Source of the DNA: Paenibacillus sp. PCH8
GTDB taxonomy: Bacteria > Bacillota > Bacilli > Paenibacillales > Paenibacillaceae
Direction: 5' to 3'
Assembly (NCBI RefSeq): GCF_002968835.1
Contig: NZ_PKQK01000008.1
Coordinates: 8,357-40,356, forward strand
Length of the DNA stretch: 32,000 bases
Position numbers and translations under genes: made by a program. Below the pieces are notes generated by a model. That model had not been told where the DNA came from, ran no database searches, and was given only the letters and a program-made list of their open reading frames with translations. Below, one piece after another: positions 1,965 through 23,944 of this stretch (its first letter is position 1; each line of letters opens with the position of its first letter).

Positions 1965-2687
1965 ATGAACCGGGCTTATTTTTGTGATGAACAAGTAGGT
2001 CAGATGCAAGCAACGTATGATGCAATCACAATGGTCAAGATGTTACATGAAGCTGGGATAGATGTCCGTAACAATCCGATTAATTATTATTGTTACGGAT
2101 GGGGTGATCAGGCGGATATCTTCCATGAGGCGATCAAAAGAATGTTGTTTGAAAGCTGCAACCAATCCTACTCGGACAATCTCCAAGGAGAGACTTGGGA
2201 GTATAGCATCGTATTTCCGGAAATTGAAGAAATGATGCTTCTATCCAATAATGACGAGGCAAATGAACTGTTAAAAAAGGTAGATATTCTTTTGCATTAT
2301 GAATGTCCAAATTTTGAAATGGGGATGAGCGGAGTTATAAAGGGAAAGAACATCTACATCAAGATAACAGGAAACTATGGGATATATTCGAATTTCTTAG
2401 GCAGAATTATTGAACTGAGAACTATCGTACTTGGGTTCATTGCACATAAGAAGAAGATGCTCATGCAAAAAATCCAAAATATTTTCATGATAAAAATGTT
2501 GTCTCTTAGTCGGCCAATACCATTAGGTATCTCAATTTGGGCACCTAATTCATTCGTATTCATACAACTTATGAAAACGTGTGGGGTAGATTTCTCCACC
2601 GAGATTGCAGAAAATCTCAGTCTAAAGAAGATGTGTTCTTTGTTAAGGGACGTTATAAAAATTGATGAAAAGGATGAGGTAGCATGA
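1965..2687 (+). CDS. Hypothetical protein, second gene of the operon
   Basis: AGGTGAGGG SD. Its stop overlaps the next start (ATGA at 2684-2687), which suggests translational coupling. It is the only open frame across this stretch. Confidence 0.55.
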   Translation: MNRAYFCDEQVGQMQATYDAITMVKMLHEAGIDVRNNPINYYCYGWGDQADIFHEAIKRMLFESCNQSYSDNLQGETWEYSIVFPEIEEMMLLSNNDEANELLKKVDILLHYECPNFEMGMSGVIKGKNIYIKITGNYGIYSNFLGRIIELRTIVLGFIAHKKKMLMQKIQNIFMIKMLSLSRPIPLGISIWAPNSFVFIQLMKTCGVDFSTEIAENLSLKKMCSLLRDVIKIDEKDEVA

Positions 2688-3415
2688 GTTTAATTCTAAC
2701 GGATAATAAAGCGGGTACTGTTGAGCATTCGCTAAGTATTAGTGAAGAAGGTAATGAATATGTAATCAGGTTGCGAGATCATAGCCTACCCTTGGTAGCT
2801 GAATTTCAGAACGGTATTAAGGTAGGAGAAGGTTTTTATACGAATGAGGATTTAGCTGAAGCATTATTACATGCTCAAAACCTCAGTGTCTTTAAAACAC
2901 CTATCCTGCCACGGGGTTGTATTTCATACCTGGAGAGTACATTTAAAACCTATTGTTTCTTCGAAGTTCCATCACATCGCAGAACTGTGTTTTACCATGA
3001 TGCGGTTATCGATGATGTGCCTTTTCCAAATTTAATTTTTGGTTATGAACTTAGGTCAAGAACAGATAGGTTTGAAATATGTAAGGTATTTGTGGGTGCT
3101 TTAGAGAAGGGCTTAACCAATGAAGAGTCGGAAGTATATTTTTATCCCTATACAAACGTAGATAGAACCTATGAAGTATGTTTAGGGTCATCTCAGTTAC
3201 CCCAAATCACACGCATTTCTCAATTATCGACAGTGCCAGAGGTTTTTTTCAATTCACAGAACTCTGACTGTTACTATGGTCATGCAAATGGTAGTGGGCT
3301 TACCTATAGGGAACTATTAGAGAAAGTCAAAGGCAAAGAATTCCTGGATAATTATCTGAAAACGACTGGCCTGACCCTCGCTGATTGGATAAGTGGACTG
3401 ACTTCTCTATCTTAG
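2684..3415 (+). CDS. E2/UBC-like protein (PRTRC protein B-like)
   Basis: YPYTNVDRTYEVCLGSS resembles the E2 catalytic signature (HPN-like Asn, then Cys about 8 residues later, followed by L/G). The Cys166 codon is at 3179-3181. VPFPNLIFGY and RRTVFYHD resemble segments I recall from PRTRC-B-type prokaryotic E2s. The gene sits immediately upstream of the JAB and E1 genes. Confidence 0.65.
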   Translation: MSLILTDNKAGTVEHSLSISEEGNEYVIRLRDHSLPLVAEFQNGIKVGEGFYTNEDLAEALLHAQNLSVFKTPILPRGCISYLESTFKTYCFFEVPSHRRTVFYHDAVIDDVPFPNLIFGYELRSRTDRFEICKVFVGALEKGLTNEESEVYFYPYTNVDRTYEVCLGSSQLPQITRISQLSTVPEVFFNSQNSDCYYGHANGSGLTYRELLEKVKGKEFLDNYLKTTGLTLADWISGLTSLS

Positions 3416-3462
3416 GCCAAATACAACTCAAATAAATTAGAAATAAGCTGGAGGTAATAGAT

Positions 3463-4758
3463 ATGTCTAACGAATTATTTGGTGGTTCTGATCTCTTTTC
3501 ATACTTTGGGGGAGGTTTCGTAGAGCCAACGAAAGTTGATAAGGAAGAAACACTAAAATCAGTGGGTAATACGATCGACATCACTAAACGCATTCAATCC
3601 AGAAGTAAATCCGACAAATCAATTGATGGACCTGGTGTAGACACATGTGAGGGCTCAACTCAGGATGAAATTAATGCTCTATCGGATGAAACACCTATAA
3701 GTGAGTCATCAGCCGATACTGCAGAACTAGGAGTAAAAAAAGATTCGTCCAAAAATGCAGATAGCAAAGATAAAAAGCCCGTCTTTACTAACACAACATA
3801 TATTTGCTACGCCGGTACGTCCAAGCTTTTAACTAAATATTTTGATATTGAAAAGATAGGGCTACTCAGTTTAGAGGATGTTCGCAAACAGTTAGAAAAA
3901 GACTTTCCTGAGATGTCAAAACAAAGAACGTTCATGAGTTTTGACGAGAAGAAGAATATAATAGTACCGGCCATCACAGGTGGGAAGAAGGGGGCTTTGC
4001 CCGTTTACTTCAACGATTCGAGAGCATACTTCTACTCTGCGAGCCAGCTCGTCGAGCATAAAGATAAGTATTCAATCTGTTACCTGGCTGCCAAAAACGG
4101 TTACTATGAGATCCGTGAGAATGGGATCGGGGTTTTTATCTCCAAATGCAACAAGGAAGAGTTAGAAGGATGGAGCAATGCTGATGAATTTTTTGCACAG
4201 CAGCCCAGGGCCCAAGAACTTGATTCTTGTCGCACCGGCTTTAAATCCAAGTTGCCGAAAATCCCTGAATCATTGGTACACCAACTAATATCATTTTTTA
4301 TGGACTATTCTGATAATGATGTAGAAGTGATGGGTGTATTCTACTGGGATACCAAGCAAGGTGTTTATCTATTGGATGTTCCTAATCAAAGTGTGTCGAA
4401 GACTTCAATCGATCAGCATTATACGAGTATGCCATATTGGATTATTAAAGTTTGTGAGATACATTCTCATAATAAAATGGAAGCATATTTCAGTTCTGTA
4501 GATAACGAAGATGAACTAGGCACCCATCTATATGGTGTAATAGGAAACTTAAAACATGCAAAAGGACTCATTCGGTTTGATATTCAAACACGAGCTGGTA
4601 TGGCAGGGAAATTTATTTCCTTGCTTCCTTCAGCACTTCTAGAGGGAGACTATGATAATCAAGAAGATTCATGGAACCTCATTAAAAAAGTGCAGTACCC
4701 TGCAGCCTGGCATGATCGTGTCTTGCTTGATCAGGTGGAGGTGGTTAACCATGATTAA
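3463..4758 (+). CDS. Fusion protein: disordered N-terminus, ubiquitin-like beta-grasp ending in an internal Gly-Gly, linker domain, then JAB/JAMM metalloprotease (PRTRC C + A-like)
   Basis: Complete JAMM motif EIHSHNKMEAYFSSVD (HxHx7Sx2D, nt 4462-4503) with an upstream Glu in DVEVMG. Residues about 106-174 (TYICYAG...LSLEDVRKQLEKDFPEM...NIIVPAITGG) have Ubl/ThiS-like length and pattern and end in GG (nt 3979-3984). GGAGGT SD. Confidence 0.75.
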   Translation: MSNELFGGSDLFSYFGGGFVEPTKVDKEETLKSVGNTIDITKRIQSRSKSDKSIDGPGVDTCEGSTQDEINALSDETPISESSADTAELGVKKDSSKNADSKDKKPVFTNTTYICYAGTSKLLTKYFDIEKIGLLSLEDVRKQLEKDFPEMSKQRTFMSFDEKKNIIVPAITGGKKGALPVYFNDSRAYFYSASQLVEHKDKYSICYLAAKNGYYEIRENGIGVFISKCNKEELEGWSNADEFFAQQPRAQELDSCRTGFKSKLPKIPESLVHQLISFFMDYSDNDVEVMGVFYWDTKQGVYLLDVPNQSVSKTSIDQHYTSMPYWIIKVCEIHSHNKMEAYFSSVDNEDELGTHLYGVIGNLKHAKGLIRFDIQTRAGMAGKFISLLPSALLEGDYDNQEDSWNLIKKVQYPAAWHDRVLLDQVEVVNHD

Positions 4759-5611
4759 TCTACTTGATTATCACGCTAAGAATGATGATTCAGAGGTTCG
4801 CCAATCACGGATACAGAGTATGTACTACTACATTGTAATTATTGGGGCCGGCGGTACCGGTGGCTATGCAGTTCAACGAATTACCAAAATGTTAAGTGCA
4901 TTTGCATCCGTAGATTCATTTCTTATGATTGCTGATCCGGATATGGTAGAGGAAAAGAATTTGCTACGACAGCCTTTCGTTAACCAGGATATAGGCGGAA
5001 AAAAGGCAAGTGTTCTTACCCAACGCTATGGTAGAACATACGGACTGAAAATCGGTTCTTATGTTGATAAATATGTGGAATCGGTTGAACAACTAGATCA
5101 GTTATTTTCATTAACTGATTTTCGTCACAAGACCGGGCAACACATTCAGAAGGTGTTAATCGGGGCAGTTGATAATGACTTTACGCGAAATGTAATGCAT
5201 GAGTACTTTATGCAGACTGATGACCTGATTTATATTGACGCAGGTATCGAAGGGGTCTTTTTACCATCAGGTGATAAACCAAAGAGTGAGTGGGGAGAAG
5301 AAGAAATAACAGATCATATGGAAAGCGGATATTCCGGGCAAGTGGTAGTGGGTCTGAGGAAAAATGGAACAGAAATCCTTGAACCACTTAATAGAATTTA
5401 CCCGATCGATGCAACGGATCTTATTGCGCCTTCACATAATTGTGGTCTGGAACCTTATCAACCTCAACGTATGATCGCAAATGAGATGGCAGCATTCCAT
5501 ATCTCAACGATTTTAAATGAGCTGTTGAGTACAAATACAATCATCGTACACTATGCAAACTTCAATGCTAGGACTGGCAGTTGCCGGCCACAGTACGTGC
5601 AAGAAGTATAG
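4751..5611 (+). CDS. ThiF/MoeB/E1-like adenylyltransferase
   Basis: Rossmann motif IIGAGGTGG and the DPDMVEEKNLLRQ motif (D.D.V...NL.RQ) typical of E1/ThiF. GGAGGTG SD 8 nt before the ATG at 4751. The start overlaps the upstream stop region. Confidence 0.85.
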   Translation: MINLLDYHAKNDDSEVRQSRIQSMYYYIVIIGAGGTGGYAVQRITKMLSAFASVDSFLMIADPDMVEEKNLLRQPFVNQDIGGKKASVLTQRYGRTYGLKIGSYVDKYVESVEQLDQLFSLTDFRHKTGQHIQKVLIGAVDNDFTRNVMHEYFMQTDDLIYIDAGIEGVFLPSGDKPKSEWGEEEITDHMESGYSGQVVVGLRKNGTEILEPLNRIYPIDATDLIAPSHNCGLEPYQPQRMIANEMAAFHISTILNELLSTNTIIVHYANFNARTGSCRPQYVQEV

Positions 5612-7254: not shown

Positions 7255-7295
7255 GATCAGCTTGACTTAAATGTTTTATGAATCTGGAGGATATT

Positions 7296-8024
7296 ATGAG
7301 CGAGATTTATTTTAACTATGATAGGTACTTTGAAGAAATTCTGGTTCGCCTTACTCATTATGATAGACTTGTAGATTTTGTTACAGATGAAGATGCCATA
7401 AGAGCAAATATTGAAAAAAACAAATGGTTGATGTTTTTCACAGGAAATGTAGAGCAAGAGATAAATAATCGAAAAAATGAATACACAAACACTTTAATTC
7501 TTTTTGGAAATCAAATGGTTGTATATTATTGCACGCTTATTGAATCTATGGTTGAGAATTTCTTCTTCACTATCTTTGCAAGTAAACCAGAAAGATTAAA
7601 CGAATTCTTTTCTTCCAAAGGCGAATTGAAAGATAATTTAGGTTTCTCTTTAAAGAAATTTTTGGAATCAGAATCCAAAGACGCATACGTTAATGATCTT
7701 TCAATAAAGGGAGCTAATCTATGTTTAGAAGGAGGTCCAAATAAATTTATTAAAAGAATTAAAGAACTAACAGGTTTCCAGATCTCGCAGGAAGTAAAGG
7801 AGATTCTGGATGACTTATATTATAAGCGTAACAGAATTATTCATAATAACGAGAAATTTGAAATTAGTACTGAAGACTTATATAAATATAGAGATGTGTT
7901 ATTTGAAATACTAGGTAAATTCCACGAGCAACTCACAAAATTAGGAGCTGAAATAAAAGATGATTATATAAAACCCTTTAGAGTTGAAGCTGTCAATACA
8001 GTAGGCAACAGCCACGCCCATTGA
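7296..8024 (+). CDS. HEPN-domain protein (RiboL-PSP/Abi-like)
   Basis: GGAGG SD before the ATG at 7296. C-terminal YYKRNRIIHNNE contains the HEPN Rx4H motif (RNRIIH, nt 7827-7844). AT-rich gene. Confidence 0.55.
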   Translation: MSEIYFNYDRYFEEILVRLTHYDRLVDFVTDEDAIRANIEKNKWLMFFTGNVEQEINNRKNEYTNTLILFGNQMVVYYCTLIESMVENFFFTIFASKPERLNEFFSSKGELKDNLGFSLKKFLESESKDAYVNDLSIKGANLCLEGGPNKFIKRIKELTGFQISQEVKEILDDLYYKRNRIIHNNEKFEISTEDLYKYRDVLFEILGKFHEQLTKLGAEIKDDYIKPFRVEAVNTVGNSHAH

Positions 8025-8076
8025 AGATTTTAAATATAATACGCCAGATGCGTCTATGGTTGAGGGGGAAGTAAGA

Positions 8077-8583
8077 ATGTTTTATGAAAATAGTATTAAA
8101 ATTTCATCTCAGGATGATATCACTCAGGAATCATTGATCAATAATGAGTATTACGTATTTAGTACTAGTATTAATTGTCTTGATAAAAAATCAAGCATTC
8201 AAAGTAGAGATAATAATATATACATTGTGGCAGTGGCTTACAGTAATGATAAAGGAGAAAAATATATTAATTGGTTTATTGCAAGAGAATCGAATATTAC
8301 TGTAATTGATGATGATGATGAGTATACAGAAAAAAAGGAAGTTGAACTAGATCTTTTAGGGATAGAAAATTTGAAAATTAGTGAACCAACAAAACCCAGA
8401 CATCAAATCAAGTTTTGTAAGGGGGTTACGGATACCATTAATGATAGTTATAGACATAGTCGTGGTTTTGGAATAATTGAAATACTAAGAGAAACACACC
8501 CTTATAATTTTACTTTTTATATTCCAGAACATATCAAAGATGCAAGTTACATCCACTTTAAGCAAAATAAGCGGATTATATAA
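8077..8583 (+). CDS. Hypothetical protein
   Basis: GAGGGGGAAG SD before the ATG at 8077; 168 aa; poly-Asp patch; no recognised motif. Confidence 0.5.
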   Translation: MFYENSIKISSQDDITQESLINNEYYVFSTSINCLDKKSSIQSRDNNIYIVAVAYSNDKGEKYINWFIARESNITVIDDDDEYTEKKEVELDLLGIENLKISEPTKPRHQIKFCKGVTDTINDSYRHSRGFGIIEILRETHPYNFTFYIPEHIKDASYIHFKQNKRII

Positions 8584-8636
8584 TCGCATTAACTAATAGG
8601 CTGATATCAAAATCATCTGAATTTGGAGCAAAAATT

Positions 8637-9647
8637 ATGAATAGTGAAGTGGTTAAACCAATTGATAGAAAGATGAGAAAGAGAATTTTTTTAAGTACTA
8701 TTGTTATCTTGGTTGTCGTGCTGGTAATTCCGTCATTGATTAAAATAGAATTGAGGACATATGAACTCCCTGGCAAACTTGACTCAGCACAAGAATTATT
8801 TCGCAACAAAACTCAAAGCTTTATTTATATTCCTGGTGTGTATGAGCAAAGAGTAAGTCGATTGTCCGATTATCTTATACTTAAAATTAGATATAGGGGT
8901 TTACTTCAAGAGTTTGAACAACCAAAACAACAACAGGAAACGCCCTATGTTTCCCCAGAAGATCCTCCAGGAAGGTTGGAATATGTTGATACAGAAGAAC
9001 TCAGAGATAGTCAACTTTTTGTTGCTATACCGGCATACATAGCAGGAAGTAATGAAGCGGACCGTCCAATTCAATACGGATTTGAGTTTGAAATTACAGG
9101 TATTCCATCAGAAGAAACTGAAGATTTATTAAACTCGACTATAGTAACAATAGATGGTTCCTCTCCTACACTTGAAAGAGTGGAGCAAATATTGGCTTCT
9201 AAAGCGCTTCACCGAATTGAAGGAAGATCCTATGATGGGAAAACTATTTTTTTAGATACTTCGCTTTACAATACTACAGTTTCTGCACACTACACAATAA
9301 AAGAATTATGGAAATTTAGTGACTTAATGAGATTTGACTTGGCCAATATTGAAGGTAATTCAGGTGGTGCCGCCACAGCCTATCAAGTCATGCTTAAACA
9401 ACAGGGAAGACCAAATGAACATGGGGAATTTGTTATTACTGGAGCTATTGAAGTTGAGGGTGATATTACAAGTGTTGGGGGAGTAAAAGCTAAAACATAT
9501 CTGGCCATTAAGAATTCAATTCCGGTCATGTTTGTCCCTAAGGGTATAAATTATACAGAAGCCATAGAAATGAAAAGTCTGATGAAGAGTAATATTGATA
9601 TCGTCCCAATTCAGAAGCTTGGTGATATTGAGGCATATTGGAAGTAA
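8637..9647 (+). CDS. Membrane-anchored Lon-type (S16) serine protease domain protein
   Basis: N-terminal TM helix IFLSTIVILVVVLVIPSLI. The C-terminus has GNSGGAATAY (Ser codon 9360-9362) and ITGAIEVEGDITSVGGVKAKTYLA...VMFVPKGN (Lys codon 9486-9488). These match the Lon proteolytic-domain pattern. Confidence 0.75.
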   Translation: MNSEVVKPIDRKMRKRIFLSTIVILVVVLVIPSLIKIELRTYELPGKLDSAQELFRNKTQSFIYIPGVYEQRVSRLSDYLILKIRYRGLLQEFEQPKQQQETPYVSPEDPPGRLEYVDTEELRDSQLFVAIPAYIAGSNEADRPIQYGFEFEITGIPSEETEDLLNSTIVTIDGSSPTLERVEQILASKALHRIEGRSYDGKTIFLDTSLYNTTVSAHYTIKELWKFSDLMRFDLANIEGNSGGAATAYQVMLKQQGRPNEHGEFVITGAIEVEGDITSVGGVKAKTYLAIKNSIPVMFVPKGINYTEAIEMKSLMKSNIDIVPIQKLGDIEAYWK

Positions 9648-10380: not shown

Positions 10381-10567
10381 TGTTTCCATTTTTTTTATAC
10401 CTAAAATGTAGAAATTTTATTTTTGAGCAACTTATATCTTGAGTTAACTTAGTATTTAATAGTGGGATATTTATAAAAGAAGCGAGGATTTCAATTTACT
10501 TCGATTCTTTCAATAAGTTGCCCATCTTGGTAGCTGTACTTTGATGAAATTTAAGGGGGATCAACAC

Positions 10568-11002
10568 ATGAAAGATGTTTTAGAACTGTTGGTTATGTTT
10601 GAAGAGGAAAAAGCTGAGAAAAACGTAACCGCGTACGTACCATCGCTACGTCTCGGAGTACATGGAGATACATTGGAGGAAGCTCGAACGAATGCGATTG
10701 AACTAATTGAGTTGGAACTGGAGGGGCGGCAGGAGCGGTTACCAGAGGATACAGCAGTCATTGAGACAATAAAGGGAAGTACAGGTGTGGATTTACTTGT
10801 TCTGTTTGAAGTGCTTGAAGAAGAAAATGATGTGACAGCTTACATTCCTGCATTGAGACTTGGTGTTAAAGGAACGACACTGTCTGAAGCACGCTCTAAC
10901 GCTGAAGACTTGATCAGGCTGGAATCTAAAAATCGCGTACATCCATATTCTCAAGAAACAGTAACGATCGATACTTTAAAGATAAAGGTTAAAGTTTCAT
11001 AA
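10568..11002 (+). CDS. Protein with two tandem HicB-like (UPF0150-type) domains
   Basis: AAGGGGGA SD before the ATG at 10568. It has two copies of the ...VTAY(V/I)P(S/A)LRLGV.G.TL.EAR.NA..LI.LE pattern, typical of the HicB antitoxin N-domain. Confidence 0.6.
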   Translation: MKDVLELLVMFEEEKAEKNVTAYVPSLRLGVHGDTLEEARTNAIELIELELEGRQERLPEDTAVIETIKGSTGVDLLVLFEVLEEENDVTAYIPALRLGVKGTTLSEARSNAEDLIRLESKNRVHPYSQETVTIDTLKIKVKVS

Positions 11003-12902: not shown

Positions 12903-13985
12903 AGACGGATTGTAATATGAAGTGCGACACCCACTGGAAATAAATAAAAAATGGCCCATGGCCGGATTCGTGTAGAATGAAGTCACCACAACAACCATTC
13001 ACACAAGGAGAATCCACCATGAGCTACACACATCTTAGCATAATCGAACGCAGCAAGCTAGAAATCCTCCACCAGCAAGGCAAAAGTTCACGAGCGATTG
13101 CCAAGGAGCTGGGCCGTCATCATTCGACCATCTGTCGTGAATTGGAACGCATGGTTTCATCGCAATCTTATCAGGCAGAGCATGCCCAGAGTGCTTATCG
13201 GGAACGACGTAAGGCTTCGGTCTCTCGTGGTAAATGGTCAGAAGCCTTAGGGGCTTCTTTTGCGGAAAAACTAGAGGCAACGTGGTCTCCAGAACAAATC
13301 ACAGAACGTTTCCGCGCCGAAGATCTACCTGCGGTTTCCTTTAAAACGATTTATCGCTGGATCTATGCAGGACGTCTTGTTCAAGGTAAATTACAAGTTT
13401 TACGTCACAAAGGGAAGCGTCGGAAACCCGCAGAAACTCGTGGTAAATTCACCATAGGCAGAACCATTTCAGATCGTCCAAAAGAGGTTCGTTCTCGTGA
13501 AACGTTTGGACACTGGGAATTGGATACCGTTGTATCGGGCCGCGGGAGAAGTAAAGGATGCGTAGCCACACTCATTGAACGCAAAACGCGTCTGTTTACC
13601 GCTGTTCTCATGACTGATCGTACCGCATTGTCCATGGAGATTGCGCTTGGTGTAGCCATATCACAGTACCCCAAAGGGACATTTCTCACGGCCACCGCTG
13701 ACCGTGGAAAAGAGTTTGCTTGCTACGCCAATCTGGAAATAACCCATGGCCTGCATGTTTATTTTGCTGACCCGTATTCATCCTGGCAACGCGGTTCCAA
13801 TGAGAATGGGAATGGATTACTTCGAGAGTTCCACCCCAAGGGCACCGATTTCGCTCAAGTAGAGGATGATGCTCTCGCCCACTGCCTTGATTTAATCAAT
13901 CACAGGCCAAGAAAATGCTTAGGTTGGAAAACTGCTCACGAATCTTTCATAGAGGAACTGTCGCACTTCGCTTTACAATCCGTCT
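12903..13985 (+). mobile_element. IS30-family insertion sequence (1083 bp)
   Basis: 27-bp terminal inverted repeats match 24/27: IRL AGACGGATTGTAATATGAAGTGCGACA (12903-12929) versus the reverse complement of 13959-13985. The element encodes a DDE transposase and is visibly more GC-rich than its flanks. Confidence 0.9.
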
Positions 13986-14119
13986 CAATAAAGCGGATAA
14001 TTGTTGTTACTGAAATTTGTGATCTTGCTAATAGGCTTAGGTTCTTTTTTGAAATTAATGAAGAGCACAGTGATCAAAGAAAAACATTATTTAGAAATTT
14101 AGCTATCACTAAAGATTAA
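13019..14119 (+). CDS. IS30-family DDE transposase
   Basis: AAGGAGAA SD before the ATG at 13019. N-terminal HTH (SSRAIAKELGRHHSTICRE), HWELDTV, TADRGKEF and YSSWQRGSNENGNGLLRE match IS30-family signatures. The ORF has no stop inside the IS and continues about 44 codons into flanking DNA. Confidence 0.9.
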   Translation: MSYTHLSIIERSKLEILHQQGKSSRAIAKELGRHHSTICRELERMVSSQSYQAEHAQSAYRERRKASVSRGKWSEALGASFAEKLEATWSPEQITERFRAEDLPAVSFKTIYRWIYAGRLVQGKLQVLRHKGKRRKPAETRGKFTIGRTISDRPKEVRSRETFGHWELDTVVSGRGRSKGCVATLIERKTRLFTAVLMTDRTALSMEIALGVAISQYPKGTFLTATADRGKEFACYANLEITHGLHVYFADPYSSWQRGSNENGNGLLREFHPKGTDFAQVEDDALAHCLDLINHRPRKCLGWKTAHESFIEELSHFALQSVSIKRIIVVTEICDLANRLRFFFEINEEHSDQRKTLFRNLAITKD

Positions 14120-14136
14120 TATAACAAGGAGAACTT

Positions 14137-15999
14137 ATGGAGATATTATATATTTGGTTTAATAATTATGGACCATTTCGACAGCAGGGCTTTCAATTGT
14201 GCGGGGATCTCCGTTTCAAATATGATTTTAATCATGAAGTACTATCAGTTACTAGGAATACGGATTATGTGCAGGATTTCTTTCGAGATCGTATGGCTCT
14301 GGAGAGCGAAACAGCCGTTGTAAAGAACATTACAGGTCTCATTGGTATTAATGGCGCAGGAAAGACAAGTCTACTCAATTATATCAAGCGTTATCTTGTT
14401 CGGGCTATGGGGCGAAAAATTAAAGAAGCACTGGTGGTGATTCGGAATGAGAAAGATGAGACGATTATTCTATATGATAAAAAAGTTATCAACTTAGAGT
14501 CTGTGAATCATGAAGGGCTACTTCATCACATTAAGATTTACAGTGGTACAGAAACCAATCAGCACTTACCGGATAGCTCGGTCATATACTTTTCAAATAT
14601 TTTTGATCACTCTCATGAGGAGACAGCAACAAACTATTACAATCTTTCAACTAACTACCTTATCCAAGGTGATTACCGTAGCAGGTTGGATTTACAGAAT
14701 GGGAATCCGAAGCAAAGTCCAATCGACGTTCATCGGGATGAAGACTTGTGCCGTCAGGTATTTTTCGTCTATGACTACCCTATTCGATTTCCAGAACAGG
14801 AACTGCCCTTCCGTTTGCCCAAGAATCTAGTGATTAAAATCCGAAACATCGATAGGGATGATTTGGGTAAGCTCGGGCAATTCGCAAATTTCTACTTAGA
14901 TCTTAATAAATATGTAACCGGTAAGATTGATGAAATATCATCACGTAACTCTGATAGGAAGTATAGCCCTAACCTGGATAGGAGAAGAGAAATATTTATA
15001 TTAACAACCTATCGCGCTATGATTTACTCTTTCTTGAAGGAAATAACTGTCTTTTCAAATCTTACGCTATTAGAGGAAGATGATCCGAATCTTTCTCTTA
15101 CAAATGTTCAGAGCGAACAAGCGACTTTCACCAATTATGTGAGGAATTTGTTTAATTCTACACTGAGTCGTTTTAATGATGATCCAACTATTAAATTGTG
15201 GCTTGATAATCTAATATTTATGGTAGATCATATATATGATTACTCGATATACTTAATACGTACAGCTAATACGCCAGATGAATATTCCCTCAAGTTACCA
15301 ATTATGCAAGGCGAAATCATGAAAAGCCCTTCATATGATTTCATAAATGTATATCGACGCTCGTACACTGTATTTCCATACCTTGATTTCGAATGGCAAC
15401 TCAGTTCAGGACAACGAGCGTTTTTAAATGTTTTCTCCAGATTGTATTCGAGAAATGACGGAGAAGTATTTGGCGACAACGTCAAGTTAACGAAACATGT
15501 TCTGCTACTAATTGATGAGGGAGAATTATACTTCCATCCAGAGTGGCAACGTCGGTTTATAGATACACTCATTCGATTCTTGTCCGTAGTCTATGGTTCT
15601 AAACGAAGAGTACAGATCCTGTTGACCTCGCATTCTCCATTCATACTGTCGGACTTACCCAACTATTGCGTCTCTTTACTCCAGCATAACGATAGACGGA
15701 CGAAAGTTAAAGATGGAACGGTAGAATTTAATACTCTTGCTGCTAATATCCACGATTTGCTGGCAAATGGCTTTTTCATGAAAGCAAACATTGGCGAATT
15801 CGCTCTGCAAAAGATTAATGACGCGATTACAAGGCTAAGGTCTCTTCAAGTTCACTCAGGTGTGGAAACTATTCGCTCACTCAGCAGTCGCGAAGAAGAA
15901 ATTGACTATCTCCGTTCCATAATCCAGCTTGTTGGTGAACCAATCATTGCTGGTCGGATGCTTGAGTTGTTAGATGAGCGGGACATAGATATGGAGTGA
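14137..15999 (+). CDS. ptuA: Septu-like PtuA (AAA15/21, ABC-type ATPase)
   Basis: AAGGAGAA SD. Walker A GINGAGKTS, Walker B-like LLLIDEGELYFHPEWQ, TSHSPF. Directly abuts an HNH gene. Confidence 0.75.
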   Translation: MEILYIWFNNYGPFRQQGFQLCGDLRFKYDFNHEVLSVTRNTDYVQDFFRDRMALESETAVVKNITGLIGINGAGKTSLLNYIKRYLVRAMGRKIKEALVVIRNEKDETIILYDKKVINLESVNHEGLLHHIKIYSGTETNQHLPDSSVIYFSNIFDHSHEETATNYYNLSTNYLIQGDYRSRLDLQNGNPKQSPIDVHRDEDLCRQVFFVYDYPIRFPEQELPFRLPKNLVIKIRNIDRDDLGKLGQFANFYLDLNKYVTGKIDEISSRNSDRKYSPNLDRRREIFILTTYRAMIYSFLKEITVFSNLTLLEEDDPNLSLTNVQSEQATFTNYVRNLFNSTLSRFNDDPTIKLWLDNLIFMVDHIYDYSIYLIRTANTPDEYSLKLPIMQGEIMKSPSYDFINVYRRSYTVFPYLDFEWQLSSGQRAFLNVFSRLYSRNDGEVFGDNVKLTKHVLLLIDEGELYFHPEWQRRFIDTLIRFLSVVYGSKRRVQILLTSHSPFILSDLPNYCVSLLQHNDRRTKVKDGTVEFNTLAANIHDLLANGFFMKANIGEFALQKINDAITRLRSLQVHSGVETIRSLSSREEEIDYLRSIIQLVGEPIIAGRMLELLDERDIDME

Positions 16000-16935
16000 A
16001 TGAATATGATTAATATTTACGAAGTGTCACAGCAAGTTCTAGCAGAAAGGCATTATGAGGCTGTTGTCGAAGAATTAATGAAGAAAGACTCTAAAAGCCC
16101 TGCGACTCTAGAAAAATGGTTCAAAGCATTCAATGTTAACTATACTTTGAAGCATATCATCACGGCGAGACCAGAAGATCTGAGGATAATGATGAGTAAG
16201 TGCAAATCAGACAAGTATCCCGAATGTATTCTGGAACTTTACGATATGTATGTGAAGAAGTTCTCAAAATCGGATCGATACATCGGTGACCGTAAACAAA
16301 AGTATAATGCAGTACAACTTATGAAGAGCCTAGAGATTAAGGTATGTCCTCTTTGTAACCGGAATTATATTAACAATGTAAAATCGAAGGGGCGGTTGGA
16401 AAAGCGTACAGGGCAGCTTGATCATTTTCATAATAAGTCATCTTACCCATTTCTTTCAATGTCATTCTTCAACTTAGTACCTGCCTGCTATGGGTGCAAT
16501 CATACGAAGGCTAGGTTTGAGCTTGAACAGACGCCCTACGCCGAGGTTGATTTGGATCCGCTCATTCGGTTTAGCGTGTCATTTAACAAAATTGAAGATA
16601 TATTTGATGAGCAACACTTAAGGGTTTCTCTAGACAATCATCCGTCCATTCAGCAGAATGTTGATGTTTTGGGTCTTTTAGAAACGTACACAGAGGAACA
16701 TAATGAAGATGCCTTTGCAGTTGTGAAGGCTTTCAAAAATTATAACGACGTTTGGCAGAATTCGATGATTGGAAATATAAAAGGACTGTTTAAAGATAAG
16801 GATCACTTGTCTGATATGTTATTAAGCGAATATATTGGTCTGAAGGATAGACTAAAGTCTAAGCCATTAGCGAAATTAAAAAAGGATATTTATGAGCAAC
16901 TGGAAGCGTACCAGCAGAGTAGTATATCAAGATAG
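16000..16935 (+). CDS. ptuB: Septu-like PtuB (HNH nuclease)
   Basis: CPLCNRNY...QLDHFHNKSSYPF...NLVPACYGCNHTK matches an HNH/TIGR02646-like pattern. The start is adjacent to the ptuA stop (TGAATG). Confidence 0.75.
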   Translation: MNMINIYEVSQQVLAERHYEAVVEELMKKDSKSPATLEKWFKAFNVNYTLKHIITARPEDLRIMMSKCKSDKYPECILELYDMYVKKFSKSDRYIGDRKQKYNAVQLMKSLEIKVCPLCNRNYINNVKSKGRLEKRTGQLDHFHNKSSYPFLSMSFFNLVPACYGCNHTKARFELEQTPYAEVDLDPLIRFSVSFNKIEDIFDEQHLRVSLDNHPSIQQNVDVLGLLETYTEEHNEDAFAVVKAFKNYNDVWQNSMIGNIKGLFKDKDHLSDMLLSEYIGLKDRLKSKPLAKLKKDIYEQLEAYQQSSISR

Positions 16936-18219: not shown

Positions 18220-19110
18220 ATGTCCAAATCAAAAGCGGACAATACAGTTATATCTTACAAAAGTGACTGGGCACATTTTAAATCATGGTGTATCAAGTAT
18301 GAGCAACCATACTTGCCAACCACCGATGAAGCTTACGGGTCCTATTTAACAAGCTTAGCAGCTTCCGGGTATAAAGTTAGTACGATTCAACGTAGGATCT
18401 CCTCCATATCTCGAGCACATATAATGAAGAAACTAGAATCACCTAATACTATTCATATCAAAACGATATGGTCCGGAATTAAAAGAATCCATGGTTCTGC
18501 CGAGGTAGGAAAGAGTCCAATCACAGTTGACACATTAAAAGAGATATTACAGCATGTTCCGGAGAATAGAATGATAGGTTATCGTGATAGGGCTCTGCTA
18601 TTAATCGGCTTTAGTGGGGCATACAGAAGGTCCGAATTAGTGAATTTTGATGTGAAGGACATCCGAATTACTCCTGAAGGGATGATTATGCGGATCGCAA
18701 AATCAAAAACAGACCAGGAGGGGAAAGGTGAATTCATTGGTATTCCATATGGATCACGGTTAGAGACTTGCCCGGTCCGTAGTTATAATGAATGGATAAA
18801 ACAATCAGGCATCACTGATGGAGCAATATTCAGACCTGTTAATAAACATAGCCATGTTTCAGAAAAGAGACTCTCAGACAAGGCCGTAGCATTGATAATT
18901 AAGAAGTATGTAGCTGCTGTAGGATTGGACCCAGCACTTTATGCCGGCCACAGCATACGTTCAGGTTTTGCTACCTCAGCTGCTATGCTTGGTAAAAGTG
19001 AAAGGTCGATAAAGGAACAAACACGTCATGCTTCTGATGCCATGGTTAGAAGATATATTCGGATGGGTTCTTTATTTACCGAGAATGCTGCTCAAAATAT
19101 CGGCCTTTAG
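18220..19110 (+). CDS. Tyrosine recombinase / integrase
   Basis: N-terminal SAM-like domain, then R (AYRRSEL), HSIRSGFAT (HxxR) and TRHASDAMVRRY (catalytic Tyr). Confidence 0.85.
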   Translation: MSKSKADNTVISYKSDWAHFKSWCIKYEQPYLPTTDEAYGSYLTSLAASGYKVSTIQRRISSISRAHIMKKLESPNTIHIKTIWSGIKRIHGSAEVGKSPITVDTLKEILQHVPENRMIGYRDRALLLIGFSGAYRRSELVNFDVKDIRITPEGMIMRIAKSKTDQEGKGEFIGIPYGSRLETCPVRSYNEWIKQSGITDGAIFRPVNKHSHVSEKRLSDKAVALIIKKYVAAVGLDPALYAGHSIRSGFATSAAMLGKSERSIKEQTRHASDAMVRRYIRMGSLFTENAAQNIGL

Positions 19111-19748: not shown

Positions 19749-19841
19749 TATATCAAGCTGATTTACTTAGATCTATATTCGATTCAGCTAACCCTATATT
19801 GTTTGTAACTTAAAGAAAATTGAAGGGGAACGGTCCTACAT

Positions 19842-20342
19842 ATGTCCAATGACAACAATACGCGGAGTACTGATAGTGAGAAAAGTACCGAAACAATGAT
19901 GTATACACTTCATAGTGGGGTCACGGGAAACATAGAACTGAACAGTACTCAACAAAAGGAATGGTTCAAACACTATGCGGATGGTCGTAAATATATCACT
20001 ACAGAAGGTGGATATATCAGAGGTTTGAATCCCAAACTTGTTTCTATATGTAAAATTAAGAAGAATAGTGAGCTTGGTAATACCTCAGAACCAAATAAAG
20101 AAGTAGTCGATGAAACAAAAACTATTCAACAAAATGAATCAATATTGGACGTAGTTGCTATAACTAAAGTCTCATACAAAATTCAATGTGTCTGCAGCGC
20201 CAGGTATGTCTCTACTTTAAGAGATGAATTAACTAAATTGAACTGTAAATACTGCGGTAAATTACTATATCCGGATCGTTCACGTAATAAAGTGGATACT
20301 ATCTATGGCAAAGCCTGGATAACCACTAATTTAGATTCATAA
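19842..20342 (+). CDS. Hypothetical protein with a C-terminal CxC...CxxC zinc-ribbon-like motif
   Basis: GAAGGGGA SD; 166 aa; CVCSARY...CKYCGK. Confidence 0.5.
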   Translation: MSNDNNTRSTDSEKSTETMMYTLHSGVTGNIELNSTQQKEWFKHYADGRKYITTEGGYIRGLNPKLVSICKIKKNSELGNTSEPNKEVVDETKTIQQNESILDVVAITKVSYKIQCVCSARYVSTLRDELTKLNCKYCGKLLYPDRSRNKVDTIYGKAWITTNLDS

Positions 20343-20385
20343 ATACAGGGATACGATGTTCACGATATTCCCCTTATGGATCTAC

Positions 20386-20414
20386 TTGGCTAAAAAATAA
20401 AGATGTTATACAAT
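20386..20414 (+). promoter_or_regulatory. Promoter of the riboswitch RNA
   Basis: TTGGCT (20386-20391), 17-nt spacer, TACAAT (20409-20414). Confidence 0.55.
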
Positions 20415-20424
20415 GAATAGTACG

Positions 20425-20512
20425 TTAAAAAGCAAACTTACTGAAAAGTGAGGACGCAAAGCCGAGGGTCTAATGTTCCTGTTGGAACTATGACAGCCTG
20501 GTTACCGAAGTT
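20425..20512 (+). promoter_or_regulatory. c-di-GMP-I (GEMM-I) riboswitch aptamer
   Basis: AGCAAAC-CUUACU-GAAA-AGUGAG-GACGCAAAGCC...GGGUCUAA...GUUCC-UGUU-GGAAC...GCCUGGUUACCGA. This parallels the Vc2-type consensus (GGCAAACC..GAAA..GGGACGCAAAGCC..GGCCUAA..GGGGUUACCGA), including the GNRA tetraloop helix. Confidence 0.8.
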
Positions 20513-20541
20513 GAAAATCAATTGATTTAAACCGGTGGAAT

Positions 20542-20571
20542 GGGCTGATCTCTTTAGAGAGGCCCTTTTTT
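20542..20571 (+). terminator. Riboswitch expression-platform terminator
   Basis: GGGC (20542-20545) pairs with GCCC (20562-20565), with an inner TCTC/GAGA stem, then T6. Confidence 0.6.
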
Positions 20572-20576
20572 ATTGC

Positions 20577-20622
20577 AAAAAATCAGCTCCCCATGTTCTT
20601 TGGCGGCCGGGAGCTGATTTTT
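20577..20622. terminator. Bidirectional terminator
   Basis: AATCAGCTCCC (20581-20591) pairs with GGGAGCTGATT (20609-20619). It is flanked by an A-run upstream and a T-run downstream, and it lies directly after the minus-strand stop at 20634. Confidence 0.8.
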
Positions 20623-20633
20623 ACAAGAGCCAT

Positions 20634-20867
20634 CTATACTGCTGTTAATGGCAGGCTGGATTCCAATGGCATTGAAACAAATTTAGAAGAGAATCTCTTC
20701 ACATTCACTGATTTGTCCAATTCTAATTTGATAAGATCCTTTAAACTTTCAAGGACTTCCGTCTCTGTATCTCCAACAACGCTCAACCGAAACTCTGGAG
20801 CGTATGCGCTGACGTTCTTAGAAGAATAGTCTTCTTCAACCAAAATCATAACTTCTCTGCTGTTCAT
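20634..20867 (-). CDS. Single-domain HicB-like (UPF0150-type) protein, paralog of 10568..11002
   Basis: GGAGGG SD 7 nt before the ATG at 20867. VMILVEEDYSSKNVSAYAPEFRLSVVGDTETEVLESLKDLIKLEL shows the same pattern as the tandem domains. Confidence 0.6.
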   Translation of the reverse strand: MNSREVMILVEEDYSSKNVSAYAPEFRLSVVGDTETEVLESLKDLIKLELDKSVNVKRFSSKFVSMPLESSLPLTAV

Positions 20868-21052
20868 ATATTGCCCTCCATGGATAGTGTGTGAGTTATC
20901 TTTTTTATAGTGAAAATGTACTACTTTTAGTACGATTATACCGCATGAATGGGTCATTAGTATGATATGGCATATTTGGACGAAGGTTGACCTTATATGG
21001 AGAAAAATTTGTCGAATAACAGCGAATTAAACAGTAATAGGGGGAAGTCCAC

Positions 21053-21844
21053 GTGCCAAACAAAATATTGACCGCAATTATTGCTGAAGATAACATTGAA
21101 AACCGTGAACAAATGGTGATTTACGCAAATAGGATAGGGATTAGCGTTCTAAGTACCGTCGCGTCCGGCGAATGGCTTATTGACGATTGTATCCGTTACA
21201 ATCCAGATATTGTATTTTTGAAAAATGATCTTAATGGTACTCCAGGATTGATTGCTTATGAAAGACTAATTGATTATGGAGTTAAACCGTATTTGATCAT
21301 CATGGCTGATGAATTGAATACAGAGTTAATGCTAGCAGGGCTTCAGCTGAATTGTCTTGATTTTTTGAATAAACCTGTGAATTTAGTTCGTATGACTGAA
21401 GCCGTAGACAAGGTTAGAATGACATTGGATAGAGACCTGAGCATTACACATGGATCGCCTGGAAGAATCATAAGTCTAAAATCGAGTTACAAGACCATCT
21501 ATGTGAACGAGCATAATCTTATTTATGCAAGTAAGCTTAAAGGGGAGCATCGGACTATCATTTATGCTGAAGGCAGTGAGGATGAGATCATATCTACCAG
21601 CTCACTTAAAGATATCATGAGTCAGTGCTCAAGCAGCTTTTTTATGCCTAATCAGTCTAACATCATTAACATGAACTATGTGTCTAAAGTGTTTGCTAGT
21701 GAGAATACGATTGGGAACTATATCATCTTGTTGCACAATGCTGTTGAAATTGATTTGCCTAGACGTAAACGCAAACTCTTTGAAGAGGCCTTCAAGCTCA
21801 ATAACAAAGATTCTAGTACTTTAAATATATCAAATGAAGATTAA
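21053..21844 (+). CDS. LytTR-family DNA-binding regulator with an atypical pseudo-receiver domain
   Basis: REC-like N-domain (IIAEDN..., DFLNKPV) with Lys at the CheY-D57-equivalent position 57 (DIVFLKNDLNG, codon 21221-21223). C-terminal LytTR pattern (ISLKSSYKTIYVNEHNLIYA...FFMPNQSNIINMNYV). Confidence 0.8.
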   Translation: MPNKILTAIIAEDNIENREQMVIYANRIGISVLSTVASGEWLIDDCIRYNPDIVFLKNDLNGTPGLIAYERLIDYGVKPYLIIMADELNTELMLAGLQLNCLDFLNKPVNLVRMTEAVDKVRMTLDRDLSITHGSPGRIISLKSSYKTIYVNEHNLIYASKLKGEHRTIIYAEGSEDEIISTSSLKDIMSQCSSSFFMPNQSNIINMNYVSKVFASENTIGNYIILLHNAVEIDLPRRKRKLFEEAFKLNNKDSSTLNISNED

Positions 21845-22027
21845 CACCTTATACTGGGACAGCTAATCATCAAGGTATTTATTTGACCAGCTCTTTTAGC
21901 CTGGTCTATTTGCTTTTCATTTCAAGTTTCATAGTACAATGTTTTGTTAGGGGTACCGAGCATGTTATAAAGATCCGTTCGTTGTCCTGCTAAATTTATA
22001 AGAATCAGAAATTTCGCATAAAAGGCA

Positions 22028-22056: not shown

Positions 22057-22116
22057 TACTTATAAAGAGAAAAACATATAAAAAATGGTTTATTATCTGT
22101 GGAGGTGGAATCTCAC

Positions 22117-23490
22117 TTGGAATCAAATAATGTAAAGACGATCCGAACAGAATTGCTACACTACATAGATCAGAATAAACTACTTATTTATCATTTTGCT
22201 GAGAAATCCGGAATTAATTCAGGTACCTTGAGTAGGATCATTAATGGATCGAAACCTATGCCGATCAGAACCCTTGACAAATTGACTTCAACTATGGGAT
22301 TAGAAGAAGGGGCTTACTATGACCTCTATGTTGAAGAGCTGATGCAGGATCCCTCAACAGATTGGAGAAGATTAAGACCATTCATTGCACGGTGTGCTGA
22401 ATTGAATAAACTTGCATGTGTTGAGCAAGTTGTTGATTTGATGCTGGAAAAATCATATTATATCTCTTCGCTTTTTGATTTTGCAGAAATGTTATACGCA
22501 GAAGGGGATAAATCTGTTGCATTAATTATTTACAAGAAAGTCTCCGAGGGAGAGCGATATCAACATGCAGAGCGACTGGCTGTATGCCAATACAGAATTT
22601 TTAAGTCTACATTAAATGATAACCAAGACCTAAATTTAGAGCGTGCCTTGATATTTGAACCGTTTGTTACAAGACTGAGTGAAACCGAACAGTTAGATGC
22701 ATTAAAGGATCTAGCAAATTTGTATTTGTCACTTAGACGTTGGGACAAAGCATTGAGTCTTGGTGGCGAAATGGGAAGAATTGCAAAAAATCAGTATGAG
22801 CAGAATCATAATCGCAAGCGACAAGACAGAAGCGAAGCCACCCCACAAAAACCCCTCTTTGGCTATATTCTTTACTCACATTTAATTCTTGGGGCTATTG
22901 CTGAAGAGAAACAAGAGTATGTACAAGCCTTACAACATGTTGCACAGTACGAAAATCATGATTGGATTATAGAAAGTGATGCAGCAGCTGAGCAAACAAA
23001 AAAACAATTTCTATCATGGGCTACCGCTAACAAAACTCTTTATAGGTTGATGTCAGGTGAAACTGATCTAATTGATGATTATGTTGAATCCCTGGCAACT
23101 AACGATAGTGAAATATTACGTGCACTTTTTAAGATAGTTAAGGCTGCTCTGAGATATGACATGAACATTGATCATATACTTGAACGGTTTGATGAAACAA
23201 TCCAATCTCAGGTGGTTTCACAATGTAAAGTAGGGTCGTATTCTTCACAGATTATCAATGACCGGTTTGTAATTTTCTTAGCCGACATAGGGGAGTATTT
23301 TTCAAAGAGTTTACGCCCAAAGGTTGGAATTCTCTTTATACTAGATAGTTTGGCAATCTCTGCTAAGATCAAAAATGATGCTTGTATGGTAAGATGCTTC
23401 TGTTTATTTGATGAAGTAAGGGATTCAGCAACAGAAGAGCAGCTCAATAGGTACAAAGCAATTTTAAGGGAGGTTCAATCACACAGATGA
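22117..23490 (+). CDS. HTH (XRE-type) plus TPR-like peptide-sensing regulator (RNPP/AimR-like)
   Basis: N-terminal HTH FAEKSGINSGTLSRIINGSKPMPIRTLDKL, followed by about 380 aa of helical-repeat-like sequence. A secreted pro-peptide gene overlaps its stop. The likely start is the TTG at 22117, after GGAGGTGG; the alternative is the GTG at 22099. Confidence 0.65.
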   Translation: MESNNVKTIRTELLHYIDQNKLLIYHFAEKSGINSGTLSRIINGSKPMPIRTLDKLTSTMGLEEGAYYDLYVEELMQDPSTDWRRLRPFIARCAELNKLACVEQVVDLMLEKSYYISSLFDFAEMLYAEGDKSVALIIYKKVSEGERYQHAERLAVCQYRIFKSTLNDNQDLNLERALIFEPFVTRLSETEQLDALKDLANLYLSLRRWDKALSLGGEMGRIAKNQYEQNHNRKRQDRSEATPQKPLFGYILYSHLILGAIAEEKQEYVQALQHVAQYENHDWIIESDAAAEQTKKQFLSWATANKTLYRLMSGETDLIDDYVESLATNDSEILRALFKIVKAALRYDMNIDHILERFDETIQSQVVSQCKVGSYSSQIINDRFVIFLADIGEYFSKSLRPKVGILFILDSLAISAKIKNDACMVRCFCLFDEVRDSATEEQLNRYKAILREVQSHR

Positions 23491-23651
23491 AAAAAAAATC
23501 AATTTTAGTCTCTGCGTTTGTGGTTCTGGCAATCCTGGTATTCACTCCATTAAACCAGGTATCAGCAAATACGGATGTTACTAAACCTGCTGTCCCCGTT
23601 TCTCCGAACACCACAGTAACGACCACTTCACACGGTGAAGGCGGTTGGTAG
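23487..23651 (+). CDS. Secreted signalling pro-peptide (54 aa), not in the ORF track
   Basis: ATGA overlap with the regulator stop. MKKKSILVSAFVVLAILVFTPLNQVSA|NTDVTKPAVPVSPNTTVTTTSHGEGGW has an n-h-c signal peptide with a VSA cleavage motif. Terminator directly downstream. Confidence 0.6.
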   Translation: MKKKSILVSAFVVLAILVFTPLNQVSANTDVTKPAVPVSPNTTVTTTSHGEGGW

Positions 23652-23669
23652 AAGTTTAACGACCTTCGT

Positions 23670-23698
23670 AAGCCTCCATGTTAAAGGAGGCTTTTTTT
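23670..23698 (+). terminator. Rho-independent terminator
   Basis: AAGCCTCC (23670-23677) pairs with GGAGGCTT (23686-23693), then T7. Confidence 0.8.
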
Positions 23699-23773
23699 AT
23701 TGAATTTTTGTTCATATGATTAAGTCAATAATTTGAGCAGAAACCGATAGGATATATATTGAGGTGAATCATT

Positions 23774-23944
23774 ATGATTAAAAGTTCAGATATGAGCACT
23801 TTGGAACAAGAGAGACAGTGCCTAAATAAATTAGTAAACTTATATGGGCTTGCACACCCTTTAGTCATAAAACAATCTGAACGATTAGATGAAGTAATAA
23901 ATCAGCACTATAAAAATTACATAAATCGTATCAATGAGGGTTAA
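23774..23944 (+). CDS. Spo0E-like aspartyl-phosphate phosphatase (56 aa), not in the ORF track
   Basis: GAGGTG SD. LEQERQCLNKLVNLYGLAHPLVIKQSERLDEVINQHY fits the Spo0E family pattern (...SQ.LD.LI..Y). Confidence 0.6.
   Translation: MIKSSDMSTLEQERQCLNKLVNLYGLAHPLVIKQSERLDEVINQHYKNYINRINEG

Follow-up and report, generated by a model that had tools for sequence, protein, structure and literature searches.

The window, a 32,000-nt stretch of DNA from Paenibacillus sp. PCH8, contains a c-di-GMP-I riboswitch downstream of a tyrosine integrase gene, followed by two tandem terminators, a small gene transcribed towards it and a divergent gene for a LytTR-type response regulator (Table 1). With the integrase, an IS30-type transposase and defence genes nearby, the term mobile island, used in the first-pass annotation, is a fair description of the setting. 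Upstream of the element lies a defence-island-like stretch that includes an E2 family D/ThiF (E1-like) cluster with unannotated neighbours (1965-5611) and RiboL-PSP HEPN and Lon-protease-C-domain proteins (7278-9647). Downstream of the LytTR gene, an XRE-HTH/TPR protein, a short signal-sequence peptide and a Spo0E-like gene form what looks like an RRNPP-type peptide quorum-sensing cassette. The same gene order recurs in two related loci (L003 and L004; related loci are referred to by L numbers). When the XRE-TPR protein was compared by sequence with solved structures, nothing informative came up.

Table 1 Features of the riboswitch locus and its surroundings. Positions are those of the window unless a related locus is named.
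Feature	Position	Strand	Description
IS30-type transposase	12977-14119		
Candidate defence pair	14137-16935		PDC-M62A (AAA ATPase, E = 1.6e-131) and PDC-M62B (E = 4.7e-44), directly after the IS30-type transposase
Tyrosine integrase	18220-19110		Upstream of the riboswitch
Promoter-like site	20386-20414	+	-35 TTGGCT at 20386-20391, 17-nt spacer, -10 TACAAT at 20409-20414
c-di-GMP-I (GEMM-I) aptamer	20421-20509	+	GAAA-capped helix, GACGCAAAGCC, GGGUCUAA, GACAGCCUGGUUACCG
Presumed Vc2 G20 equivalent (Rfam model position 11)	20431	+	A; directly 5' of the G21-C46 pair
Antiterminator (predicted)	20494-20547	+	CAGCCUGG-UUACCG (20494-20507) pairs with CGGUGG-AA-UGGGCUG (20533-20547)
T1, intrinsic terminator (expression platform)	20542-20571	+	GGGCU..UCU/AGA..AGGCCC hairpin at 20542-20565, U6 at 20566-20571
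T2, terminator of the convergent small gene	20577-20622		A6 tract, 14-bp stem, U5 tract
Conserved loop and 3' arm of T2, UCUUUGGCGGCCGGGAGC	20593-20616; L005 4515-4536; L016 4396-4417; L009 4566-4585		
Convergent 77-aa gene, proposed antisense target	20634-20867	-	Weakly HicB/PHD-like
Orphan response regulator with LytTR DNA-binding domain	21053-21844	+	Response_reg and LytTR domains; divergent from the small gene
XRE-HTH/TPR protein (463 aa) and the genes after it	22099-23944 region		Followed by an overlapping 54-aa signal-sequence peptide (23487-23651) and a Spo0E-like gene (23774-23944)
T1 region of aptamer-less relatives	L001 8320-8450 (-); L004 4380-4520 (+)		-10-like box and T1

The aptamer was identified with an Rfam covariance scan, which returned a full-length match (model positions 1-87) to the c-di-GMP-I family RF01051 with a score of 82.9 bits and an E value of 4e-15. 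This is well over the gathering score of 35 bits, and RF01051 is the sole Rfam family above its gathering score in the window, so the GEMM-I aptamer proposed from the letters alone is borne out by Infernal. The two-helix architecture and the GNRA tetraloop (GAAA) are both present. The aptamers of the related loci L003, L005, L016 and L018 score 81.5-85.3 bits against the same model. In an alignment of eight aptamer sequences, 9 of the 23 consensus pairs show compensatory changes on both sides, which upholds the structure. The aptamer is the most conserved segment of the locus: between lineages it is 81-91% identical, compared with 60-73% for the small gene and the LytTR gene and 55-64% for the DNA further upstream. 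Sequence conservation thus indicates that the aptamer is under purifying selection wherever it is present.

A promoter-like site precedes the aptamer. The first-pass annotation regarded TTGGCT-17-TACAAT as a good promoter; the site is there and its -10 block is invariant, but it matches the consensus at only 9 of 12 positions and its -35 element is not conserved among the riboswitch-bearing loci. Matches of such quality are no commoner in the window than in shuffled sequence (8 found, 10.6 expected), and the consensus scan alone therefore proves no promoter. The stronger case for a putative promoter comes from conservation: the 12-nt block ATGTTATACAAT (20403-20414) is invariant in the window, L003, L005, L016 and L018, and the aptamer starts 7 nt past it.

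Downstream of the aptamer, T1 and, directly after it, T2 of the convergent gene were found where the first-pass annotation had placed them, each as a hairpin with a U tract. T1 (dG = -12 kcal/mol) is kept in L003, L005, L016 and L018, and also in the aptamer-less loci L001 and L004. A polymerase leaving T1 reaches T2 (dG = about -17 to -24 kcal/mol) within 6 nt, and another 12 nt separate T2 from the stop codon of the minus-strand gene. With A6 on one side and U5 on the other, T2 is predicted to be able to act in both directions. The T2 loop, UCUUUGGCGGCC, is conserved in L003, L005, L016 and the riboswitch-less L009; as L009 has the same loop, its conservation is no evidence for sense-antisense pairing. 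The loop and the 3' arm are kept across diverged lineages while the outer stem varies, and they could form a protein or RNA recognition site in the 3' UTR of the small gene.

The aptamer is coupled to T1 by an alternative helix, found in 5 of 5 loci, in which the 3' strand of the aptamer pairs with a segment (20533-20547) that takes in the 5' half of T1. This antiterminator is the minimum free energy (MFE) structure of the window and L003 RNAs, and it is the MFE structure in all five loci when the RNA stops short of the 3' half of T1. One-sided changes preserve the pairing, with UUACCG:CGGUGG in the window and UUACCGU:ACGGUAA in L005 and L016; such covariation in the platform is anecdotal because only four independent sequences carry the riboswitch. 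Given that the aptamer 3' strand can pair with the T1 5' half in every lineage, structure predicts a c-di-GMP OFF switch.

The small gene that faces the riboswitch encodes a 77-aa protein that matches a hypothetical protein from Paenibacillus sp. PCH8 at 100% identity. Its nine homologues range from 68 to 83 aa, and every one is paired with a LytTR gene. Six of these nine family members match Pfam PHD_like, which speaks for the HicB-like label of the first-pass annotation, but the best E value is 0.0011 and just one of the nine matches HicB_lk_antitox. The AlphaFold2 model of the protein (pLDDT 52) is too poor for a fold search, and with family matches this weak the label HicB-like stays weak as well. 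Elsewhere in the window, a 153-aa protein at 10541-11002 has the same weak match to PHD_like, a HicB-fold antitoxin family (E = 2e-4).

The product of the LytTR gene lacks the phospho-acceptor Asp in its receiver domain, where D54 of Spo0F aligns with K57 and the family consensus is N. It is therefore an orphan pseudo-receiver regulator. On the contigs of the homologues, the LytTR gene and the 68-83 aa gene form a constant divergent pair, usually with an integrase adjacent. The intergenic region between them (20868-21052) and its equivalents in L001, L004, L005, L016, L017 and L018 contain conserved boxes. GTACTA..TAGTACGATTATA and TATTTGG..(N8)..TGTCGAA(T) occur in every lineage and may be operator or promoter elements; we read the second as similar to a sigma-H-type -10 (GAAT), a putative assignment.

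Just two plus-strand ORFs lie downstream of the aptamer before the LytTR gene, 20535-20648 (37 aa) and 20593-20829 (78 aa). Both lack a ribosome-binding site as well as conservation in relatives, and no overlooked coding region conserved in relatives was found on the plus strand up to the LytTR start. A search for small hydrophobic ORFs like those of type I toxins found none, and the only minus-strand ORF of at least 20 aa in 20340-20640 is one within the aptamer. The earlier statement that the riboswitch has no gene to regulate thus stands for co-directional genes, with the plus strand devoid of conserved ORFs and ribosome-binding sites from the aptamer to the start of the LytTR gene.

We compared the locus with its relatives. 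The order riboswitch, T1, T2, convergent 68-83 aa gene and divergent LytTR gene is shared by L003, L005/L006/L008, L016 and L018, so that four sequence-distinct lineages of Paenibacillus-type integrative elements, or five when the near-identical L003 is counted, have the riboswitch layout. The LytTR proteins of these loci are 98% (L003, which forms one lineage with the window), 56-60% (L005/L006/L008), 55-56% (L016) and 54-55% (L018) identical to that of the window. Their aptamers occupy the same place and orientation as that of the window, convergent with the small gene. In the metagenome contigs L013 and L015, the same aptamer subtype is part of conventional 5' leaders, ahead of surface-protein or pilin-like genes, so the convergent position belongs to the module and not to the aptamer subtype. 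A further metagenome contig, L014, carries two c-di-GMP-I aptamers about 850 nt apart (8129-8218 on the minus strand and 9065-9158 on the plus strand), transcribed away from each other beside sigma-70-like genes.

A blastn search of 19800-21900 against phage and plasmid records gave no match; tblastn of the LytTR protein returned nothing from phages and, from plasmids, Paenibacillus records only, all without the riboswitch. Scans of viral contigs with the LytTR alignment and the aptamer pattern found nothing, and among the genome contigs scanned only P. xylanilyticus and P. sinopodophylli matched, both without the aptamer. Exact-protein look-ups with the window's own proteins retrieved no record.

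Because this synteny is conserved, control of the small gene by cis-antisense transcription is the most economical reading of the locus. The first-pass annotation described a stand-alone, orphan RNA. Its promoter-like box, its own terminator and the lack of a co-directional gene agree with that description, but the conserved linkage of the riboswitch to the small gene and its LytTR partner favours another option that the annotation had named, a ligand-gated antisense regulator. We consider it about an even call that the locus is an antisense-acting c-di-GMP-I riboswitch and forms part of a regulatory module conserved among integrative elements of Paenibacillus. Transcription would start about 7 nt past the conserved -10 box. 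With c-di-GMP bound, the aptamer would hold its own 3' strand (CAGCCUGGUUACCG), T1 would form and a non-coding RNA of about 150 nt would be released. When the ligand is scarce, the aptamer 3' strand would instead pair with the 5' half of T1 as the antiterminator, and the polymerase would enter T2. If it stopped there, the product would be an RNA of about 205 nt able to pair through roughly its final 45 nt with the 3' end of the small-gene mRNA. If it read on, antisense RNA would cover the entire small gene and perhaps extend into the LytTR gene. Either through an RNA duplex or through convergent transcription, less of the small HicB-like protein, with which the LytTR regulator is always partnered, would then be made, and the regulatory switch of the element would be tied to the c-di-GMP state of the host. 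We infer the existence and the effect of the read-through RNA, like the role of the small protein, from sequence. Since T2 of the window is strong on the plus strand, the antisense overlap may come to about 45 nt of 3' UTR and its effect may be small.

The arrangement as such is already described, both as an enrichment of convergent c-di-GMP riboswitches (PMC9943018) and in C. difficile prophages (PMC7699646). In a 2023 survey, c-di-GMP was the riboswitch class most enriched in convergent positions, with 152 antisense and 2,554 sense cases (P = 4.6e-62), and one of the convergent c-di-GMP riboswitches faces the gene of an XRE regulator, a transcription factor, in Paenibacillus (PMC9943018). 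That survey placed convergent riboswitches within 500 nt of the 3' end of the opposite gene and looked for conservation of that gene (PMC9943018); here T1 ends at 20571 and the stop codon lies at 20634, and the convergent gene is conserved in four sequence-distinct lineages and the near-identical L003. Antisense action has been shown experimentally for the SAM/S-box riboswitch opposite ubiG-mccBA in Clostridium acetobutylicum and the B12 riboswitch of AspocR opposite pocR in Listeria monocytogenes. The window shares with them a promoter of its own (here putative) at the 3' end of a convergent gene, a terminator/antiterminator platform, a ligand that turns the antisense RNA off (here as predicted) and a target within a transcription-factor module. 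It differs in the target, here a 77-aa HicB-like protein with a LytTR regulator on an integrative element, and in the position of T2 directly after T1, by which the overlap may span the 3' UTR only; the present case is known from sequence.

The C. difficile riboswitches cdi1_4 and cdi1_5 provide a closer parallel. They lie in the prophages phiCD630-1 and phiCD630-2 and give rise to a terminated RNA of 140 nt and a c-di-GMP-repressed read-through antisense RNA of 400 nt (RCd11/RCd12); class I c-di-GMP riboswitches of this species are usually OFF switches (PMC7699646). Common to both systems are a c-di-GMP-I riboswitch of OFF polarity (predicted here) on a mobile element, a short terminated RNA (about 140 nt in C. 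difficile, predicted here), a longer read-through RNA antisense to a convergent gene (again predicted here) and the use, by the read-through form, of a terminator common to other RNAs. In C. difficile, however, the gene targeted encodes a small membrane toxin belonging to a type I toxin-antitoxin pair, and downstream of the riboswitch there is a second, stronger promoter, whereas no such promoter is evident in the window and the 77-aa product is charged and soluble-looking. As the target is no toxin, the locus is not a type I antitoxin. The riboswitch-driven antisense form is dispensable for toxin control in C. difficile (PMC7699646).

A further comparison concerns the geometry of the overlap. 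Antisense RNAs of Bacillus type I toxin-antitoxin systems, such as SR4/bsrG, overlap their targets at the 3' ends of convergent genes with a common bidirectional terminator. The window has the same convergent layout, with RNAs that would overlap solely at their 3' ends, but the SR4/bsrG-type antisense RNAs act on toxins and are not known to be ligand-gated.

The main rival to the antisense reading is a long leader for the LytTR gene, in which the transcript made at low c-di-GMP would pass T1 and T2, run antisense to the small gene and enter the LytTR gene, mainly raising LytTR expression, with or without lowering that of the small gene. The LytTR gene is always the next co-directional gene, and from T2 to its start there is no convincing plus-strand terminator, a weak candidate lying at 20897 (window and L003). 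U-richness past T2 on the plus strand differs among lineages: the tract is UUUUUACA in the window and weaker in L003 (UUAUUUAC) and L016 (UAUCAUUU). Such a leader would, however, have to follow a 480-nt path against an active convergent gene and across the divergent promoter region, and in the window it would first meet T2, a strong hairpin followed by U5. Moreover, whether or not a lineage has the riboswitch, its LytTR gene retains conserved boxes of its own upstream. On balance we consider the long leader unlikely.

The RNA of about 150 nt might instead act alone, as a merRNA-like buffer or sponge for c-di-GMP or as a trans-acting small RNA. It has its own promoter-like site and terminator and no downstream ORF, and precedents exist: Bdellovibrio bacteriovorus has the ORF-less merRNA (PMC3627812), and C. 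difficile is listed with an orphan c-di-GMP-I riboswitch (PMC11477304). Like merRNA, the window RNA would be a non-coding RNA that carries a c-di-GMP-I riboswitch and lacks a conserved downstream ORF. Unlike merRNA, which is 445 nt long, massively expressed and a proposed sponge, a role that its authors themselves called speculation (PMC3627812), the window RNA is short, has a conserved terminator/antiterminator, predicted to respond to ligand, and shows strict synteny with a convergent gene. A sponge needs massive expression, which fits poorly with a promoter match of 9/12 and an unconserved -35 element, and a pure sponge would give the conserved antiterminator no purpose; the sponge role has no positive support here. 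Pairing in trans with the two neighbours was rejected: the short RNA is no more complementary to the 5' regions of the small gene and the LytTR gene than shuffled controls are (z = -1.1 to +0.9). A stand-alone RNA would also leave the strict synteny with the small gene unexplained, and we regard it as distinctly improbable. A conserved, dispensable, antisense-acting OFF riboswitch of a mobile-element module explains the feature better than a free-standing orphan.

The ligand of the window copy deserves separate consideration. The motif GCAAAC, cited in the first-pass annotation, does contain the conserved opening G-C pair, but the base just 5' of it is A where the consensus has G (20431). We take this base to be the equivalent of G20 of Vc2, a presumed assignment that agrees with A47 as the first A downstream of GACGC. 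In the cmscan alignments the equivalent base is G in L003, L005, L016, L018, L013 and L014, and A in the window and L015. The window aptamer retains the equivalents of A47 and C92 and has A in place of the G20 contact. It differs from the L003 aptamer at three positions (20425, 20430 and 20431), all in the 5' tail.

In Vc2, G20 reads one guanine of c-di-GMP, and the G20A variant binds both c-di-GMP (Kd 53 nM) and 3'3'-cGAMP (Kd 120 nM), its affinities for the two being similar; natural A20 riboswitches are cGAMP-selective or bispecific (PMC6140456). Membership of the window aptamer in RF01051 stands, since the family also holds A20 sequences. In having A20 while keeping A47 and C92, the window copy is like the GEMM-Ib riboswitches (Geobacter Gs1761, C. 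beijerinckii Cbe 1-2 and Vc2 G20A; PMC6140456), but its sister copies in L003, L005, L016 and L018 have G, which argues for a recent change in a single lineage. Strict c-di-GMP selectivity of the window copy is thus in doubt. It may be less selective than its sisters, or weaker for c-di-GMP; A20 may equally be a recent neutral or damaging mutation. PADLOC identified no cGAMP synthase among the ten proteins of the upstream defence genes scanned.

The loss of the aptamer in other relatives bears on whether the riboswitch has any current target. In L001/L002/L011 (P. xylanilyticus) and in L004, a -10-like box, T1 and T2 remain and the aptamer is absent; alignment indicates a deletion of about 70 nt in L001. 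Scanned permissively with Rfam models, the RNAs of L001 and L004 showed no aptamer remnant and no other riboswitch class. The -10-like box of L004 is a perfect TGGTATAAT. L001 and L004 may still make a short, constitutively terminated RNA of about 80-115 nt. In L009, L010, L012, L017 and L019 there is no riboswitch/T1 unit. Since the aptamer was lost repeatedly in related elements, the riboswitch input is dispensable.

Elements that deleted the aptamer yet kept T1 and T2 would also be expected if the riboswitch were a decaying or neutral passenger, or a modulator of a T1 common to the upstream operon of the integrase and a 166-aa protein. The 166-aa gene (stop at 20342) and the riboswitch have no terminator between them, so this operon too ends at T1, and in L004 T1 comes after a 161-aa gene without any aptamer. 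That all three window-specific aptamer substitutions fall in the 5' tail, the ligand-contact position included, fits a passenger as well. A riboswitch without a current target nevertheless seems improbable to us: the aptamer still scores 80-85 bits where the proteins are only 54-60% identical, no other segment is as well conserved, its changes include compensatory ones, and the antiterminator is kept in all riboswitch-bearing lineages. Returning to the antisense reading, one can picture a wider scheme in which the element reads the cyclic-dinucleotide state of its host through a riboswitch-gated antisense RNA that flips a switch formed by the small HicB-like protein and the pseudo-receiver LytTR regulator, and combines this input with the adjacent RRNPP-type peptide quorum signal to decide on excision, transfer or host manipulation. 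We offer this scheme as speculation with little chance of holding in full.

Knowledge of the riboswitch class itself is unchanged by the locus. Only two antisense-acting riboswitches have been dissected experimentally, and the numerous convergent c-di-GMP examples are so far computational predictions. The window provides a compact, conserved example in which the putative promoter, aptamer, antiterminator, T1 and the terminator of the target all lie within 240 nt, and its relatives supply natural controls: sister copies with G20 or A20, and loci with the aptamer deleted and T1 kept. With this compactness and these variants, the locus could serve as a test case for second-messenger control of a mobile-element switch through antisense transcription at the 3' end of a gene.
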